From: an uncultured Actinomycetes bacterium | GTDB taxonomy: Bacteria; Actinomycetota; UBA4738; HRBIN12 | Assembly: GCA_964449755.1 (NCBI GenBank) | Contig: CAYVCH010000002.1 | Location: 1 to 36,328, forward strand | Length of the DNA stretch: 36,328 nucleotides | Direction: 5' to 3' | Part shown: piece after piece, positions 4,283 to 10,037 of the stretch | How the letters are laid out: each line of letters opens with the position of its first letter | Position numbering within the stretch: the stretch's first letter is position 1 | The notes under the pieces: generated by a model | Databases searched by the model: none | What the model saw: the letters and a program-made list of their open reading frames with translations, nothing else | What the model was told of the DNA's origin: nothing | Position numbers and translations under genes: made by a program

Positions 4283-4746
4283 TGCTCGAGGGAGTCCACC
4301 CCGACCAGGTCCGTCGCTGGCCCGGCGAGTTCCCCTTCCGCTACCGGTACACCGCGGGGGTGGCGGGGACCGTCTTCCTCCGGGCCCTCCGGGACCGGGG
4401 GGTCTTCCTGGGCTCCCGGTGCGGCCGCTGCGACTACACCTACGTCCCCGCGCGGCTCTACTGCGAGCGCTGCTTCGAGCGGCTCCGGGCCGACCTGGAG
4501 GTGGGCCCCGCAGGGACCCTGGAGTCCTTCGCCGTCGGCTACGTGGGGGTGGACGGGGAGCCCCTGGAGGAGCCGGTGACGGTGGGCCTCGTCCGTCTCG
4601 ACGGGGCCGATGCCGTGCTGTTCCACCGGGTGCTCGACGCCGACCGGCCCCTGGAGGTCGGGATGCGGGTGGCGGCGGTCCTCAAGCCCGAGGGCGAGCG
4701 GACCGGCTCCATCCTGGACGTCGAGGGCTTCCGGCCCGTCGAGTGA
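4282..4746 (+). CDS. Stand-alone DUF35 protein (zinc-ribbon plus OB-fold, acyl-CoA-associated).
   Basis: The ATG at 4282 overlaps the upstream TGA (ATGA-type coupling). The 154-aa product has CGRC-x13-CERC and is a paralog of the C-terminal domain of the preceding gene (LEVGMRVAAVLKPEGERTGSILDVEGFRP versus VRVGMAVEAVWKPEAEREGSIRDIRYFRP). Confidence 0.85.
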   Translation: MLEGVHPDQVRRWPGEFPFRYRYTAGVAGTVFLRALRDRGVFLGSRCGRCDYTYVPARLYCERCFERLRADLEVGPAGTLESFAVGYVGVDGEPLEEPVTVGLVRLDGADAVLFHRVLDADRPLEVGMRVAAVLKPEGERTGSILDVEGFRPVE

Positions 4747-5537
4747 GGCTCACCCCCCGGCGTTCCCCTCCCGGGTCCGGTGGGCAGGTGCTCCGGCCTC
4801 GCGTCTTCCGGTCCCTCTCCCCGTACCCAGACCACCACGCCGGTGACGCCCAGCGCGAACCCCCCGACCCCCATGACCACGCCGGCCAGCTGCTGGTCCA
4901 GAACCGGCGGGATCCCCGGGGGACCGGGGCGCTCCCCGTAGGGCGGGTACAGGGGAAGCCGGGAGAGCGAGAGGAACGACCCGAGGTACATAGGCAGGGC
5001 CGCCTGGACCAGCAGGTAGGTCAGGGTCCTCGCCGGCGAGAGGCGCGGCAGCTGGCGGCCGGGGCCGATGACGGGGCTCCACATGGTGGCCGCCGACCCG
5101 AGCAGGGCCGTGTGCAGCGCTGCGTGGGCGAGCTGGGAGCGAGCCATCAGTCCCACGACGGGGGGCCAGTGGATCAGCGCGAGCACGGCGTTGAACAGGA
5201 CGAGGGCCGGGACCGGCCGGGTGAGGGCGCGCACCGCCGCCGCCACGGTCCGCCCCTGGAGGAGCCGACGCACGAGCCGCGGAGGTACCCCGAGCAGCAG
5301 GAGCGGAGGGGCCGCGAGGGCCAGGAGGAGGTGCTGGACCATGTGGGCCCAGTACAGCCGCTCCGCCAGGTCGTGCAGGGGCCAGTCCAGGGTCAGCCAG
5401 AGCCCGAGGACGCCCAGCGTGAACGGCAGGGCCCCGGCGCCCTCGGCGGGGGAGGCCTCACCCAGGGCGAGGAGGTAGGTCCCCGCGAGGGCGAGAACGG
5501 CCACCCATGCCTCGGGGTGGGGATGCCATGCGGGCAT
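4539..5537 (-). CDS. ctaG: Cytochrome oxidase assembly factor, CtaG-like (Caa3_CtaG family polytopic membrane protein).
   Basis: 332-aa ORF with multiple hydrophobic helices and family-like segments (LDWPLHDLAERLYWAHMVQHLLLALAAPPLLLLG, LIHWPPV). The last ~69 codons (4539-4746) are R/S/T/P-rich and lie antisense to the DUF35 gene, so the functional C-terminus is uncertain. Confidence 0.7.
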   Translation of the reverse strand: MPAWHPHPEAWVAVLALAGTYLLALGEASPAEGAGALPFTLGVLGLWLTLDWPLHDLAERLYWAHMVQHLLLALAAPPLLLLGVPPRLVRRLLQGRTVAAAVRALTRPVPALVLFNAVLALIHWPPVVGLMARSQLAHAALHTALLGSAATMWSPVIGPGRQLPRLSPARTLTYLLVQAALPMYLGSFLSLSRLPLYPPYGERPGPPGIPPVLDQQLAGVVMGVGGFALGVTGVVVWVRGEGPEDARPEHLPTGPGRGTPGGEPHSTGRKPSTSRMEPVRSPSGLRTAATRIPTSRGRSASSTRWNSTASAPSRRTRPTVTGSSRGSPSTPT

Positions 5538-5592
5538 CCAGGCCGCGAGGGGGACGGTCGGGGTCGTGGCGGTCCTTTCCCTTCAGGGGCGC

Positions 5593-5621
5593 TTGACAGG
5601 AGACGCGGGAAGGAGTATAGA
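5593..5621 (+). promoter_or_regulatory. Sigma-70/SigA-type promoter: TTGACA, 17-nt spacer, TATAGA.
   Basis: TTGACA at 5593-5598, an exact 17-nt spacer, and TATAGA at 5616-5621. It lies in an AT-enriched gap upstream of the oxidase operon. Confidence 0.6.
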
Positions 5622-5624
5622 CGC

Positions 5625-5645
5625 AAAGGACCTAAAAGGTCTTTT
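5625..5645. promoter_or_regulatory. AT-rich imperfect palindrome AAAGGACCT-AAA-AGGTCTTTT just downstream of the -10. Candidate operator.
   Basis: The two 9-nt arms are inverted repeats with one mismatch. The element stands out in ~70% GC DNA and sits where a repressor would block initiation. Confidence 0.45.
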
Positions 5646-5677
5646 GAATCCTCCAGCTGGCACGGGAGGTGGTCGCG

Positions 5678-5845
5678 GTGGGCACCGAGGCTCGGGAGGT
5701 GCCGGAGGAACAGGTCCCCTTCGGGCAGATCGTCTTCGACAACATCTGGCTCCTCTTCGTGCTCGGCATCGGGATCCCGTTCCTCTCCTACATCGTCTGG
5801 GGGCTGATCGACATCGGGAGCACGCCCCTGGCGCCGCCGCGGTGA
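5678..5845 (+). CDS. Small single-pass membrane protein (55 aa). Possible accessory subunit of the downstream oxidase, analogous in position to subunit IIa.
   Basis: Not in the ORF track. A GTG at 5678 is preceded by GGGAGG (5664-5669, 8-nt spacer). Translation is VGTEAREVPEEQVPFGQIVFDNIWLLFVLGIGIPFLSYIVWGLIDIGSTPLAPPR, with one clear TM helix. GC3 is high in this frame. It occupies the slot of cbaD in Thermus cbaDBA, but I see no sequence similarity to it. Confidence 0.4.
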   Translation: MGTEAREVPEEQVPFGQIVFDNIWLLFVLGIGIPFLSYIVWGLIDIGSTPLAPPR

Positions 5846-5893
5846 CGGGCCGACGGCGGGCGGCGGGGGCCTGAGGTACGAGGGGGAAAGGGG

Positions 5894-6412
5894 ATGGCGC
5901 TCACCGCACCCGAGCGGGTCTGGTGGAGGCCGGTCGGCCGCCAGGAGCGCGTCTGGGTCGGCCTCAGTGTCGGCTTCACGCTCCTGCTGTTCTTCTCGAT
6001 GCCGGCGTGGCACCTCTTCGCGAAACAGAACACCCCGAACGAGTACTACCGGATCGCGCCCGCTCAGTTCCTGGAGCGGGCGAACGCATTCATCGACCAG
6101 TACCAGGTGGGGACCGAGGCGGGCCTCCCGGTGGTGCGGCCCCCGGAGGGGGACGTGTACCTCATCGCCCGGCAGTGGCAGTGGAGCCCCATCCTGGTGC
6201 TGACGGCGGGCAAGACGTATCGGCTGCACCTGTCCTCCGTCGACGTCCAGCACAGCCTCTCGCTGCAGCCGACGAACATGAACTTCCAGGTCGTTCCCGG
6301 GTACGACTACGTGCTCACGATCACGCCGACCCCCGGCTCGTACACCATCATCTGCAACCAGTTCTGCGGCCTGGGCCACTACCAGATGAGCGGCAAGATC
6401 GTCGTGGAATGA
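5894..6412 (+). CDS. cbaB: Heme-copper oxidase subunit II, ba3 (B-family) type, with an intact CuA site.
   Basis: 172 aa with an N-terminal TM helix and a cupredoxin domain. The C-terminus YTIICNQFCGLGHYQMSGKIVVE matches Thermus CbaB (RIICNQYCGLGHQNMFGTIVVKE). The upstream CuA His lies in SSVDVQHSL. Confidence 0.9.
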   Translation: MALTAPERVWWRPVGRQERVWVGLSVGFTLLLFFSMPAWHLFAKQNTPNEYYRIAPAQFLERANAFIDQYQVGTEAGLPVVRPPEGDVYLIARQWQWSPILVLTAGKTYRLHLSSVDVQHSLSLQPTNMNFQVVPGYDYVLTITPTPGSYTIICNQFCGLGHYQMSGKIVVE

Positions 6413-6441
6413 GCAGCAGGATCGTCGTGGAGGAGTGAGCC

Positions 6442-8154
6442 ATGGCCATCGCGATCCCCCGTCCCGTGCGGAGGCCGGTCGAGTTCTCGTCCCGCACCTG
6501 CGAGCTCACGGGGCTCCGTGTCGACCTGGTCGCCCAGCGCCTCATCGTGACGAACGCCGTGACCGCCATCGTCTTCCTGTTGATCGGCGGGGTGATGGCG
6601 CTCCTGGTGGGGCTCACCCGGTGGCCGGCCATCGGCCTGCTCTCGTCCCAGCCCGACCTCTACTTTCGAGCCGTCACCCTGCACGGCCAGAACATGCTGC
6701 TGTTCTGGATCATCTTCTTCGAGGTCGCTGGGCTGTACTTCGGGAGCGCCGTGGCGCTGAACGCCAGGTTGGTGAAACCGGGCCTGGCGTGGCTGGCCTA
6801 CGGGCTCATGCTGGGCGGGGCGGTCCTCACCGACGTCGTGGTGTTCACGGGGAGGGGCACCGTGATGTGGGATGCCTACATCCCCCTCCGGGCGCACCCG
6901 CTGTTCTACGTGGGGTACGACCTGTTCGCCGTGGGCGCCCTGCTGGCGGTGGGGCTGTTCTTCGCGACCATCGTGGTGGCCAGAGCCGAGGGGCGCTTCA
7001 CGGGGTCCCTGCCGCTGTTCACCTACGGGCTCGTCGCCGCCGGCATCATCGCCACCTTCACCTTGCTGGGCGGGGTCATCACGTTCGTGCCGGCCCTCTT
7101 CTGGGCCCTCGGCATCATGGACTTCGATCCCGAGGTCTACCGACTGAACCTGTGGGCCATGGGACACGGCAGCCAGCAGATCAACCTGGCGGCCATGGTG
7201 GCCATCTGGTACCTGCTCGCGCACCTCACGACCGGGGCCCGCGTGCTCAACCAGAAGCTCAGCCGGTTCGCCTTCATCCTGTACATCCTGTTCATCAACC
7301 TGGGGTCCAACCACCACCTGCTGACCGATCCCGGCCTCACCATCGGCTACAAGGTCTGGAACACCAGCTACGCGATGTACGGGGCCGTCCTCGGGAGCAT
7401 GATCCACGCCTTCTCGATCCCCTCCTCGGTGGAGGTGGCCCAGCGGGCCAGGGGGTACGGCCGGGGGCTCTTCGAGTGGCTCCGGAAGGGACCCTGGCGG
7501 AACCCCGGCTTCTCGGCCCTGGTGCTCTCGATGGTGGGGTTCGGCTTCCTCGCGGGCACCACCGGCGTGGTCTGGGGCCACGAGCAGATCAACATCATCC
7601 ACCACAACACGCTGTCGGTGCCCGGCCACTTCCACGCGACCGTGGTGCTGGGGACCACCCTCGCGTTCATGGGACTGACCTACTACGTGATCCCGCTCAT
7701 CGCCCGCCGGGAGCTGGTGGGCAGGCGCTGGGCGGCGGTGCAACCCTACGTCTACGGGGCCGGCGTCGCCCTCCTGGCGGTGGGGATGGTGACCTCGGGT
7801 GGCCTCGGGGTCCCCAGGAGGGTCCCGACCCTCGACTACCCGGGGGCCCCCGTGCCCGTCGCGTTCAGCGGGGGCGCCTACACGGCCCTCACCGTCATGG
7901 GCATCGGGGCGGTGCTGGCGCTGGTGGGCGGCGCCCTGTTCATCGGGATCGCCGTCGGCTCGGTGCTGTGGGGCCGGCGGATCCCCGTGGGGCAGGCGCC
8001 GCAAAGCGTCGCCATTGCGCCCGCCGTCGACCTGGATGCCGTGGAGCACCGGGCCCCGGGGACCCTGGTCATGGCCCTGGTCTTCCTCGGCTGGTTCGCC
8101 GTCGTGGTCCTGGGCAACCTCTGGCGTCTGGGGAGCCTGTGGCCCTTGAGCTAG
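6442..8154 (+). CDS. cbaA: Heme-copper oxidase superfamily catalytic subunit I, B-family (ba3-like), with a non-canonical active-site helix VI (no cross-link Tyr).
   Basis: 570 aa and polytopic. Matches to Thermus CbaA include VTLHGQN (heme b His), NHHLLTDPGL (His-His), RGLFEWLRKGPWRNPGF, HHNTLSVPGHFHATV and GVPRR. The GHPIVYFW segment is replaced by GHGSQQIN (7162-7185). Confidence 0.9.
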   Translation: MAIAIPRPVRRPVEFSSRTCELTGLRVDLVAQRLIVTNAVTAIVFLLIGGVMALLVGLTRWPAIGLLSSQPDLYFRAVTLHGQNMLLFWIIFFEVAGLYFGSAVALNARLVKPGLAWLAYGLMLGGAVLTDVVVFTGRGTVMWDAYIPLRAHPLFYVGYDLFAVGALLAVGLFFATIVVARAEGRFTGSLPLFTYGLVAAGIIATFTLLGGVITFVPALFWALGIMDFDPEVYRLNLWAMGHGSQQINLAAMVAIWYLLAHLTTGARVLNQKLSRFAFILYILFINLGSNHHLLTDPGLTIGYKVWNTSYAMYGAVLGSMIHAFSIPSSVEVAQRARGYGRGLFEWLRKGPWRNPGFSALVLSMVGFGFLAGTTGVVWGHEQINIIHHNTLSVPGHFHATVVLGTTLAFMGLTYYVIPLIARRELVGRRWAAVQPYVYGAGVALLAVGMVTSGGLGVPRRVPTLDYPGAPVPVAFSGGAYTALTVMGIGAVLALVGGALFIGIAVGSVLWGRRIPVGQAPQSVAIAPAVDLDAVEHRAPGTLVMALVFLGWFAVVVLGNLWRLGSLWPLS

Positions 8155-8171
8155 CGGGCGTGGAGTAGCGC

Positions 8172-8666
8172 ATGAAGCTCTCGCGGGAGAGCGAGTACGG
8201 GCTGAAGGCCCTCGTGTACCTCGCGACCCAGCCGCCGGGCAGCATCATCCAGGCGGGACGGCTGGCCGAGGCCGCCGGGCTGCCGCCCATGTTCCTGGCC
8301 AAGACCCTGCGGAAGCTGACGCGCCACGGGATCCTCCGCTCCCACCAGGGAAGGAACCGCGGTTACGGCCTGGGCCGGCCCCCGGGGGAGATCTGCGTGC
8401 GGGAGGTGCTGGAGACCATCGAGGGCCCCGACCTGTTCGAGCGCTGCGTGTTCTGGAGCGACCTGTGCTCCGAGCGCAACCCGTGCCTGCTGCACGAGAC
8501 CTGGCGGACGGTGCGGCCGGTCATGCGGGAGCTCATGGAGCACATCTCGCTGGATGAGGTGGCGGAGGGCCACCCGCTGCCGGGGGTGGCCGGGGCGAGG
8601 TTCGTGCGGGGGACAGCATCATCAGGACCCGGTGGGAGGTCGAGGCCGTCCAGGGTGGGGCCGTGA
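8172..8666 (+). CDS. Rrf2-family transcriptional regulator (IscR/NsrR-like) with putative Fe-S ligands.
   Basis: 164 aa. The N-terminal wHTH MKLSRESEYGLKALVYLA is typical of Rrf2 proteins. The ligand pattern is C92-x6-C99-x5-C105-x2-H108 (8445-8495). It starts 17 nt after subunit I, and its stop overlaps the ctaB start. Confidence 0.85.
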   Translation: MKLSRESEYGLKALVYLATQPPGSIIQAGRLAEAAGLPPMFLAKTLRKLTRHGILRSHQGRNRGYGLGRPPGEICVREVLETIEGPDLFERCVFWSDLCSERNPCLLHETWRTVRPVMRELMEHISLDEVAEGHPLPGVAGARFVRGTASSGPGGRSRPSRVGP

Positions 8667-9595
8667 GGGCGCGGTCGGGGGCGGCCCTGGTGGCCGGGAC
8701 GGAGGGCGCGGTTGCCGAGCGCGCCCCTTGGCTGGCCCCCTACGTGGCCCTCACGAAGCCTCGGGTCGTCTCCCTGCTCGTCCTGACCGGTGCCTGCGCG
8801 GCGGTGGTGGGCGCCGGCGGCCGTGCCGACGCCACGGTCCTGGCGGCCGTCGTGGGGGGCGGGGGGCTTGCCGCCGGAGGGGCCAACGCCCTGAACTGCG
8901 CCCTGGACCGGGACCTGGACGCGCTGATGGCCCGCACGCGGGATCGCCCCCTGCCCCGGGGCAGGGTTCCGACGGCGCACGCCGTGGCCCTCGGTCTCGC
9001 GCTCAACGCCCTGGCGGCCCTCTGGCTGGTTGGAGCCGCCAACGTCCTGGCGGCGGTCCTGGCCCTGGCCGGCTCCGCCTGGTACGTGGTCGTGTACACC
9101 TGGTGGCTGAAGCGACGGTCCCCGCAGAACATCGTCATCGGGGGCGCCGCGGGTTGCTTTCCGCCGCTCGTGGGGTGGGCGGCCGCCACGGGTACGGTGG
9201 ATGGCACGGCCCTGGCTCTGGCGGCCGTCGTCTTCTTGTGGACCCCCGTTCACTTCTGGGCCCTGGCCACCCTGCTCCGCGAGGACTACCGCCGGGCGGG
9301 GGTGCCTATGCTTCCCGTCGTGGCGCCGCCGACCAGGGTGGCCCGTCTGATGCTCGGCTACGCGGTGGCGACGGCCCTGGCCAGCCTCTCGCCGGTGGCC
9401 TGGGGCGGACTCGGTCTCCCCTACCTGGTGGTGGCGCTGGCCGGCGGGGTCGGGCTGGTGCGGCGGGCGTGGGCGCACCGGCGGCGACCCGGCGCCAGCC
9501 CGACCCGCGGCCTGTACCGGTACTCGCTCGCGTACGTGGCCGGGTTGTTCGTGACCGCCGCGCTGGAGCGGATGGCGTTCCTCGTCGGAGGCTAG
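8663..9595 (+). CDS. ctaB: Protoheme IX farnesyltransferase (heme O synthase).
   Basis: 310 aa, starting at a GTG in a GTGA overlap. UbiA-family motifs are present: YVALTKPRVVSLLV, NALNCALDRDLDALMARTRDRPLPRG, WTPVHFWALA. Confidence 0.9.
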   Translation: MRARSGAALVAGTEGAVAERAPWLAPYVALTKPRVVSLLVLTGACAAVVGAGGRADATVLAAVVGGGGLAAGGANALNCALDRDLDALMARTRDRPLPRGRVPTAHAVALGLALNALAALWLVGAANVLAAVLALAGSAWYVVVYTWWLKRRSPQNIVIGGAAGCFPPLVGWAAATGTVDGTALALAAVVFLWTPVHFWALATLLREDYRRAGVPMLPVVAPPTRVARLMLGYAVATALASLSPVAWGGLGLPYLVVALAGGVGLVRRAWAHRRRPGASPTRGLYRYSLAYVAGLFVTAALERMAFLVGG

Positions 9596-9617
9596 GAGCT
9601 CGGGAAGGAGGATCGGG

Positions 9618-10037
9618 ATGGCGCGACGGCTCTTGCTGGCCCTGGCAGTCGTGGCCCTGGCCGTCCCCGCTTGCGGCGGCGGAGGGGGCGGAGGGGGCGG
9701 CGGTGGCATCGCCGTGAAGCTCGCCGAGTGGTCCGTGACCGTGGACCCGGCCAGCGCCCCGGCCGGGACTGTTACGTTCAACGTCGAGAACGGCGGCGCC
9801 AACGTCCACGAGCTCGTGGTGTTCAAGACCGAGCTGGCGGAGGATGCCCTGCCCGTCGTCGGGGACGCGGTGGACGAGACGGCGCCCGACCTGACCCTCG
9901 TCGACGAGGTGGAGGACATCGCGCCGGGGGGCACCGCCACGCTGACCGTTGACCTGGAGCCCGGGAACTACGTGTTGATCTGCAACATCAGCGGGCACTA
10001 CTCGCGGGGGATGCACGCCGCCTTCGCCGTGAGCTGA
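9618..10037 (+). CDS. Lipoprotein cupredoxin (type-1 blue copper protein).
   Basis: 139 aa with RBS GGAAGGAGG. The signal peptide ends in ...LAVPAC, followed by an 11-Gly tether (9675-9707). Copper ligand pattern: His in NVHELVV, then CNISGHYSRGM (C-x4-H-x4-M). Confidence 0.75.
   Translation: MARRLLLALAVVALAVPACGGGGGGGGGGGIAVKLAEWSVTVDPASAPAGTVTFNVENGGANVHELVVFKTELAEDALPVVGDAVDETAPDLTLVDEVEDIAPGGTATLTVDLEPGNYVLICNISGHYSRGMHAAFAVS

Follow-up and report, generated by a model that had tools for sequence, protein, structure and literature searches.

A putative iron-sulfur Rrf2 autorepressor and its probable 21-bp operator in an eNOR-type oxidase operon of an uncultured actinomycete

What a transcriptional regulator of the Rrf2 family would control from within a respiratory operon, through which DNA site and in answer to which signal, is the question raised by a 36,328-nt stretch of DNA (contig CAYVCH010000002.1, here called the window, to which all positions refer unless a locus or contig is named) from an uncultured Actinomycetes bacterium. 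The host assembly (GCA_964449755.1) comprises 2.54 Mb with a G+C content of 74% and is 94% complete. The operon consists of six genes on the plus strand, running from a small membrane open reading frame (ORF) through to a cupredoxin, and the Rrf2 gene lies among the genes for a heme-copper oxidase homologue (Table 1). The original prediction had proposed that this regulator, an AT-rich palindrome at the operon promoter and a Tyr-less oxidase active site form an autoregulated, redox- or nitric oxide (NO)-responsive module. The model arrived at here, in which an iron-sulfur (Fe-S) Rrf2 autorepressor would bind a 21-bp operator and be released by a signal, most likely NO, is considered probable as a whole.

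The embedded position of the regulator gene was found to be as predicted. It lies between subunit I and ctaB, beginning after a gap of 17 nt from the subunit I stop (8154), with GGAG located 6 nt ahead of its ATG, and its TGA stop and the first in-frame GTG of ctaB overlap in the sequence GTGA at 8663–8666. As the gene lies inside an operon whose promoter carries a conserved, matching operator, the comparative evidence described below also favors the proposed autoregulation.

Assignment to the Rrf2 family was supported by profile searches (PF02082, 104.6 bits against a cut-off of 30, E-value 5.9e-30; TIGR00738, 98 bits against a cut-off of 73.3). The AlphaFold model (predicted local distance difference test, pLDDT, of 85) displays the winged-helix N-terminal domain and long dimerisation helix of the Rrf2 fold, with RsrR, CymR, IscR and NsrR as its best structural matches, and the top 38 fold matches in the PDB are all Rrf2 proteins or structural-genomics entries labelled as Rrf2-family or putative regulators. 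The ligand pattern C92-x6-C99-x5-C105-x2-H108 is present as had been described and is invariant in an alignment of 30 subfamily sequences, as are W111, E6, Y9 and, in the recognition helix, P38, F41, L42 and K44. In a profile search against solved structures, C92, C99, C105 and H108 align with positions 92, 98, 104 and His107 of Escherichia coli IscR, bearing out the likeness claimed for the two ligand sets; W111 aligns with IscR Trp110, and the first ligand spacer is one residue longer than that of IscR. The protein therefore probably holds an Fe-S cluster on Cys92, Cys99, Cys105 and His108.

Scores against the models for individual Rrf2 proteins fell well under their cut-offs, namely NsrR (equivalog NF008240, 47.7 bits against 182), IscR (TIGR02010, 46.4 against 207.55; NF008110, 38.3 against 275), RirA (45 against 193), CymR (44.5 against 195) and the SUF regulator (56.6 against 110.65). 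Among solved structures, the redox sensor RsrR is the closest by sequence. The alignment with it ends at residue 92, a Lys takes the place of RsrR His12, and position 8 may be E, Q, R, K or G in the clade, so that neither Glu8 of RsrR nor Asp8 of NsrR is conserved. Since some of the hallmarks tested for each of NsrR, IscR and RsrR are lacking, the protein is best not assigned to any of the three. Its sequence profile is matched by approximately 33,000 of 1.84 billion representative proteins, 119 of them at an E-value of 1e-30 or lower, and the signature R-C-[VIL]-F of the clade to which it belongs is limited to roughly the best 25–30 representatives. The motif C-x6-C-x5-C-x2-H is kept in 64 of 65 clade members. 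The extended form C-x6-C-x5-C-x2-H-x2-W is also carried by an Rrf2 paralogue on contig C187 of the same genome and by a distant Rrf2 protein (24% identity) encoded on the minus strand at 1750–2166 of locus L098 (G084:C1), about 5 kb from eNOR-type genes. These two copies suggest that a wider Cys3His Rrf2 group exists.

Relatives of the regulator in the databases fall into 81 clusters of 45–75% identity, all from metagenomes or metagenome-assembled genomes. In a maximum-likelihood tree two other Rrf2 paralogues encoded by the host fall outside the clade (support 95/84). A survey restricted to one genome per species yielded 65 loci from more than ten phyla, including Methylomirabilota, Actinomycetota, Armatimonadota, Vulcanimicrobiota, Gemmatimonadota, Myxococcota, Binatota and Bipolaricaulota. 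Neighboring genes identified by tblastn were of narGH type in about 20 of these loci, nosZ-nosD in about 17 and nirK in about 11, with a Tyr-less oxidase immediately upstream in six; the reference proteins were drawn from the same loci, for which reason "NarG-type" denotes Nar- and Nxr-like enzymes alike. Most of the remaining loci were too short for their neighbors to be judged, and almost every locus with enough flanking sequence has nar, nirK, nosZ or eNOR genes beside the regulator. The variety is already visible in four database homologues, whose neighbors are a nirK-like gene, a near-identical oxidase-type operon (Armatimonadota), a narGH-type nitrate reductase and a nosZ-nosDFY cluster, respectively. 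Genes for hemerythrin/DUF2249 proteins also occur among the neighbors, and no isc or suf genes were found beside clade genes in the survey loci. When context labels were placed on the regulator tree, they clustered far more than shuffled labels. The suggested link to nitrogen-oxide chemistry is thus upheld by narG-type, nirK and nosZ genes adjoining the clade, and on tree and neighborhood evidence the regulator belongs to a distinct small Rrf2 clade which travels with denitrification genes in uncultured bacteria.

Closer to the host, the regulator was detected in three of 41 relatives, and in two genomes of the same family (G008 and G014) the orthologue ends a nos cluster. The host itself has a paralogous module of subunit II, subunit I and Rrf2, the two Rrf2 copies being 63% identical. 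The order subunit II-subunit I-Rrf2 is also found in six loci from other phyla (L010, L019, L028, L040, L042 and L047), and the fuller order of operator, small transmembrane ORF, subunit II, subunit I and Rrf2 recurs in the paralogous operon and in loci of Armatimonadota, Sysuimicrobiota, Dormiibacterota and Myxococcota.

The palindrome reported upstream of the operon, AAAGGACCT-AAA-AGGTCTTTT at 5625–5645, was found to be an inverted repeat with one mismatch lying 3 nt past the -10-like hexamer. With up to four mismatches tolerated, no second copy occurs in the 2.54-Mb assembly, and the palindrome is thus not a widespread repeat. A loose search with this palindrome returned matches 16–60 nt upstream of clade genes in many loci, and a symmetrised 21-bp matrix was trained on 12 sites located 20–60 nt upstream of clade genes, taken from other genomes only. 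When the host genome was scanned with this matrix, the window site ranked first (27.2 bits), which agrees with its proposed role as an Rrf2 operator. Second came C30:817 (18.4 bits), immediately ahead of the gene that opens the paralogous operon. Apart from these two, the sites of 8 bits or more were a few weak ones scoring no higher than about 10 bits, and there was no site in the narGH locus on contig C11.

Across 818 kb of non-redundant loci, 59 positions scored at least 12 bits, and almost all of them either directly flank the regulator gene, on its upstream side or on its downstream side before the next operon, or precede eNOR-type operons or nosZ. In loci not used for training, 44 positions reached 12 bits, compared with 1.55 in composition-preserving shuffles, and 13 reached 18 bits, compared with 0.1. 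The sites upstream of eNOR-type operons in L010, L019, L028 and L047 outscored all 200 dinucleotide shuffles, as did the sites upstream of nosZ in six loci where the regulator is last in the cluster (L053, L054, L061, L066, L067 and L074). High-scoring sites also precede nosZ in G008 and G014, and the site in L040 precedes a fused membrane-cupredoxin gene which heads the operon. As a negative control, 14 kb of G084, which has an eNOR-type operon without an embedded regulator, contained no site of at least 6 bits.

The consensus of the family reads AAAGGACy-N5-rGTCCTTT. Of the 35 sites that were collected, every one has G5, A6 and C17, 34 have T16, and A1, A2, T20 and T21 hardly vary; positions 7 and 15 pair in only 19 of the 35, and positions 8 and 14 are often unpaired. 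Since it is the sequence rather than the pairing that is conserved, and the corresponding hairpin is not unusually stable, the element is read as a protein-binding DNA site and not as an RNA structure. An unseeded search for exact 4-mer palindromes upstream of clade genes, although underpowered, returned registers of the same motif as four of its seven top patterns (AAGA-N9, GACC-N5, GGAC-N7 and AAAG-N11). In a scan of 40 relatives with AAAGGAC-N7-GTCCTTT, the hit rate with up to two mismatches was about equal to that of a reversed control pattern, and this stringency is therefore uninformative; only the window site matches with a single mismatch. On this comparative evidence, the palindrome at 5625–5645 is very probably the docking site of the embedded Rrf2 regulator. 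A second type of palindrome, ATGA-N6-TCAT, was found in six of 45 regions that each comprise the 120 nt upstream of a clade Rrf2 gene (shuffle mean 0.07), and a further regulator of these promoters may bind there.

The promoter preceding the palindrome had been described as a textbook one. Its -35 hexamer and spacer are indeed ideal, but TATAGA matches the -10 consensus at only four of six positions and lacks the conserved final T, owing to which a consensus promoter scanner reported no promoter in the region 5300–6000. The promoter was retained as probable because homologous loci show the same layout of -35, spacer and operator: hexamers of the TTGACA or TTGACC type are found at the corresponding position ahead of the operator in L010, L019, L028, L040 and L047, and the -10-like hexamers of homologous promoters read CATAGT, CAAAGT, TATCAT and TACGAT.

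With regard to the enzyme, the Tyr-less active site proved to be real, subunit I having the motif W..GHGSQQ with Gln at the position four residues after the His. This Gln stands in place of the cross-linked Tyr and is the residue by which eNOR enzymes are recognized (PMC8756737, Table A4). The motif W..GH[PG][SAT]QQ[IV]NL is common to all eight Rrf2-linked subunit I homologues, and its shorter form W..GH[PG][SAT]QQ also occurs in G084. For the eNOR of Rhodothermus marinus, which has heme A-type cofactors, activity as an NO reductase has been demonstrated (PMC11214002), and by its active-site residues the oxidase homologue in the window is an NO-reductase-type (eNOR) enzyme. Such enzymes are rare in the phylum (two of 301 genomes sampled, this genome counted, the other being G084), and nirK and/or nosZ adjoin the homologous operons in L019, L028, L040 and L042.

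Other heme-copper genes were encountered near clade regulators. In L010 (6514–7986), L019 (~8700–9990) and L028 (~8721–9990), from Armatimonadota and Sysuimicrobiota, a second and more divergent COX1-like gene is located between eNOR subunit I and Rrf2; its motif GHALQ[YF] has an aromatic residue at the cross-link position, and the usual HH pair is absent from the L010 copy. Clade Rrf2 genes also occur near Tyr-retaining enzymes in L034 (12251–13552, GHPIVY) and L056 (2633–3976, GHTLQY), which look like B-family-type oxygen reductases from their motifs. The heme-copper link of the clade is therefore not limited to the Gln-containing (eNOR) type.

According to the proposed mechanism, the regulator would act as a dimeric repressor whose cluster-bound form binds the operator at 5625–5645 and blocks transcription of the whole operon, from the membrane ORF to the cupredoxin and including its own gene. 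A signal which damages or alters the cluster would release the protein and turn the operon on, and as the signal fades, newly made cluster-bound protein would shut it again. Since the regulator would be made from the very transcript that it represses, the arrangement would amount to a negative autoregulatory loop. Most likely, the protein works in the manner of NsrR with an IscR-type cluster ligation. What was observed is the order of the genes, the conservation of the ligands, and the conservation and location of the operator; that a cluster is bound, that the protein represses and does not activate, and which signal it answers to are inferred from these.

The signal is most likely NO and possibly oxygen or the redox state. 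Pointing to NO are the exclusive association of the clade with nitrogen-oxide enzymes and the presence of hemerythrin/DUF2249 genes among its neighbors. Several points weigh against the proposed model. The Cys3His ligands resemble those of IscR rather than NsrR (Cys3 plus Asp8) and would fit a redox or oxygen sensor equally well. The extended motif C-x6-C-x5-C-x2-H-x2-W occurs in 110 of the best 150 representatives and is not clade-specific, the ligand motif thus belonging to a larger, uncharacterised Rrf2 group. No nirK (PF07732) or nirS (PF02239) was found in the 94%-complete assembly, and an internal source of NO is therefore not evident. With respect to the DNA site, L042 has an embedded regulator but no strong operator; the first site matches elsewhere were seeded with the window palindrome, a circularity which is mitigated, though not removed, by the placement of the sites, the shuffles and the reciprocal scan; and, as the -10 is weak, the transcription start and the geometry of repression are deduced from sequence.

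The best surviving alternative retains the same regulator and operator and takes oxygen, cellular redox or Fe-S supply as the signal, with denitrification being gated by oxygen tension as in an IscR- or RsrR-like system. It draws on the alignment of all four ligands with the Cys3His set of IscR in place of the Cys3 and Asp of NsrR, on the variable position 8, on RsrR as the nearest solved structure by sequence and on the missing nirK and nirS; in addition, the operator has GAC-N7-GTC at its core, as does the IscR type-1 motif (PMC6599224), and expression of eNOR has been reported to require micro-oxic conditions (PMC11214002). This alternative is nevertheless judged unlikely, given that the clade is tied to nitrogen-oxide enzymes and not to isc/suf or general redox genes, that hemerythrin/DUF2249 genes are among its neighbors and that the RsrR ligands are not conserved.

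Much less likely still is that the regulator activates the operon from this site, or both activates and represses it. IscR activates some promoters, and a poor -10 is typical of activator-dependent ones, but the position of the operator is that expected of a repressor: in six of the seven eNOR-type promoters it starts 3–17 nt after the -10-like hexamer, in the seventh (L040) it overlaps the -10 region, and at stand-alone clade genes it lies 16–60 nt before the start codon. A placement downstream of or over the -10 and just before start codons suits a repressor. We give next to no credence to the remaining reading, in which the palindrome would be an RNA hairpin of the 5' untranslated region, a chance AT-rich element or the site of a co-occurring regulator, for although it can form a 10-bp RNA hairpin and the over-represented ATGA-N6-TCAT suggests that other factors act upstream of clade genes, its predicted fold is not unusual (z-score -1.45, with 18 of 200 shuffles folding as well), conservation is in the sequence and not in the pairing, the motif follows the regulator gene over more than ten phyla and four kinds of target operon and is absent where the regulator is absent (G084), and the recognition helix of the clade is nearly invariant.

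The features of the locus are listed in Table 1. The start codon of the divergent ctaG-like gene is 98 nt away from the operator centre, and the lipoprotein cupredoxin is the likely electron donor. The 55-residue ORF is homologous to the N-terminal part (..PFGQ.VFDN..) of a 235-residue membrane-anchored cupredoxin in a Myxococcota locus (L040:6936–7643), and in the paralogous operon a single gene joins the same N-terminal membrane module to a cupredoxin domain (C30:201–830, minus strand). Given this homology to fused cupredoxin genes, the form in the window looks split, its cupredoxin being encoded apart at the end of the operon. The paralogous operon itself is divided over two contigs, with C30:1–840 joining C4:25358–28025 (both minus strand); C30:1–309 encodes the N-terminus of its subunit II, the remainder of which is at the end of C4, and no ctaB follows its Rrf2 gene. 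Elsewhere the genome has a narGH-type nitrate reductase (C11:1582–6519) and a hemerythrin/DUF2249-like gene (C11:9244–9750) but no nosZ, and the organism thus presents two NO-reductase-type operons with no recognisable nitrite reductase.

Table 1. Features of the oxidase operon and its promoter region, in window coordinates.
Feature	Position	Strand	Basis
Divergent ctaG-like assembly factor	4539–5537	-	Pfam Caa3_CtaG, E-value 1.7e-40
-35 hexamer TTGACA	5593–5598	+	Read from sequence
-10-like hexamer TATAGA, 17 nt after the -35	5616–5621	+	Four of six consensus matches
Probable 21-bp operator AAAGGACCTAAAAGGTCTTTT	5625–5645	.	Matrix score 27.2 bits
Single-pass membrane ORF of 55 residues, operon gene 1	5677–5846	+	No Pfam hit
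Subunit II with CuA site (CNQFCGLGHYQM)	5894–6412	+	Weak COX2/CoxB matches; C-x3-C-x3-H-x2-M from sequence
Subunit I, eNOR-type heme-copper oxidoreductase	6442–8154	+	Pfam COX1, E-value 8.2e-58; GHGSQQ
Rrf2-family regulator, 164 residues	8172–8666	+	Pfam and NCBIfam superfamily models
ctaB (heme O synthase)	8663–9595	+	NCBIfam heme o synthase, 325 bits against a cut-off of 246
Lipoprotein cupredoxin, final operon gene	9618–10037	+	Cupredoxin_1 and sulfocyanin-like matches, all under curated cut-offs

To our knowledge, the regulation of denitrification is understood almost only from Proteobacteria, where it proceeds through FNR/DNR/NNR, NorR and NsrR. Control of nirK, norB and hmp by Rrf2/NsrR proteins, the occurrence of Rrf2 genes near clade II nosZ and nod, and the eNOR family itself are already known. 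The eNOR papers PMC11214002, its preprint and PMC8756737 make no mention of Rrf2, and in literature on Rrf2 with eNOR or Methylomirabilis no description was found of the clade, of its operator or of its place inside eNOR operons. It may tentatively be proposed, as an idea whose full extent we would hesitate to expect, that the clade is a third, independently specialised Rrf2 gas sensor beside NsrR and RsrR, in which an IscR-type Cys3His cluster senses NO and one 21-bp operator serves as the local master switch for every step of denitrification (nar, nirK, eNOR and nosZ) in ten or more phyla that are for the most part uncultured, among them Methylomirabilota, Actinomycetota, Armatimonadota and Vulcanimicrobiota. 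If the gas-sensor reading were true, the presence of the regulator inside eNOR operons would amount to regulatory evidence for the handling of NO by eNOR in vivo. The link found here also lends support, from the side of regulation, to the NO-reductase role of the eNOR family. The regulator and its operator form a pair that can be read from sequence in uncultured lineages with nitrate reductase, nirK, eNOR or nosZ, and with it metagenomes can be used to predict regulons and hence the conditions under which nitrous oxide is produced or consumed. For the chemistry of Fe-S sensors, the occurrence of IscR-like ligands amid nitrogen-oxide enzymes also provides a useful contrast.

Three characterized Rrf2 proteins provide the closest points of comparison. 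NsrR is an NO-sensing [4Fe-4S] repressor of hmp, nirK/aniA and norB in Proteobacteria, Bacillus and Streptomyces, IscR is a [2Fe-2S] regulator of Fe-S cluster biogenesis, and RsrR binds its [2Fe-2S] cluster through Glu8 and His12 from one subunit together with Cys90 and Cys110 from its partner. The regulator in the window resembles IscR in that its Cys3His ligands and the following Trp align one to one and in the GAC-N7-GTC core and AT-rich centre of its operator, and by analogy with IscR its cluster-bound form would be the DNA-binding form. Position 43, which is Glu in E. coli IscR, is Ala here. It further differs from IscR in being surrounded by denitrification genes rather than isc/suf, and in the flanks of its operator, the IscR type-1 site being ATASYYGACTRwwwYAGTCRRSTAT (PMC6599224).

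Rrf2 genes have been noted beside clade II nosZ and nod genes in metagenomes (PMC6264515; bioRxiv 10.1101/2023.11.21.568154), and the present locus agrees with these reports in presenting Rrf2 as a common neighbor of nitrogen-oxide enzymes outside the model Proteobacteria. Those cases concern Bacteroidota and Alphaproteobacteria and were described without an operator, a ligand analysis or a link to eNOR. As in described eNOR operons (Rhodothermus marinus enzyme; PMC11214002), the operon in the window combines Gln at the site of the cross-linked Tyr with a CuA subunit II and a gene for heme O/A biosynthesis. The eNOR papers cited above mention no Rrf2 gene such as the one embedded here, and the operon in the window has ctaB but not ctaA. 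With NsrR the regulator shares its family and fold and three Cys in the same loop; like NsrR, it is encoded beside nitrogen-oxide reductase genes which it is predicted to repress, and would be autoregulated through a promoter-proximal AT-rich palindrome (PMC1274295). It departs from the C-x5-C-x5-C arrangement and partner-subunit Asp8 of NsrR in its first spacing of x6 and its invariant His108 as candidate fourth ligand, its clade operator AAAGGACy-N5-rGTCCTTT differs from the NsrR operator gATGyAT-N5-ATrCATc (PMC1274295), and eNOR, nosZ and nar-type operons of uncultured phyla are among the predicted targets of the clade.

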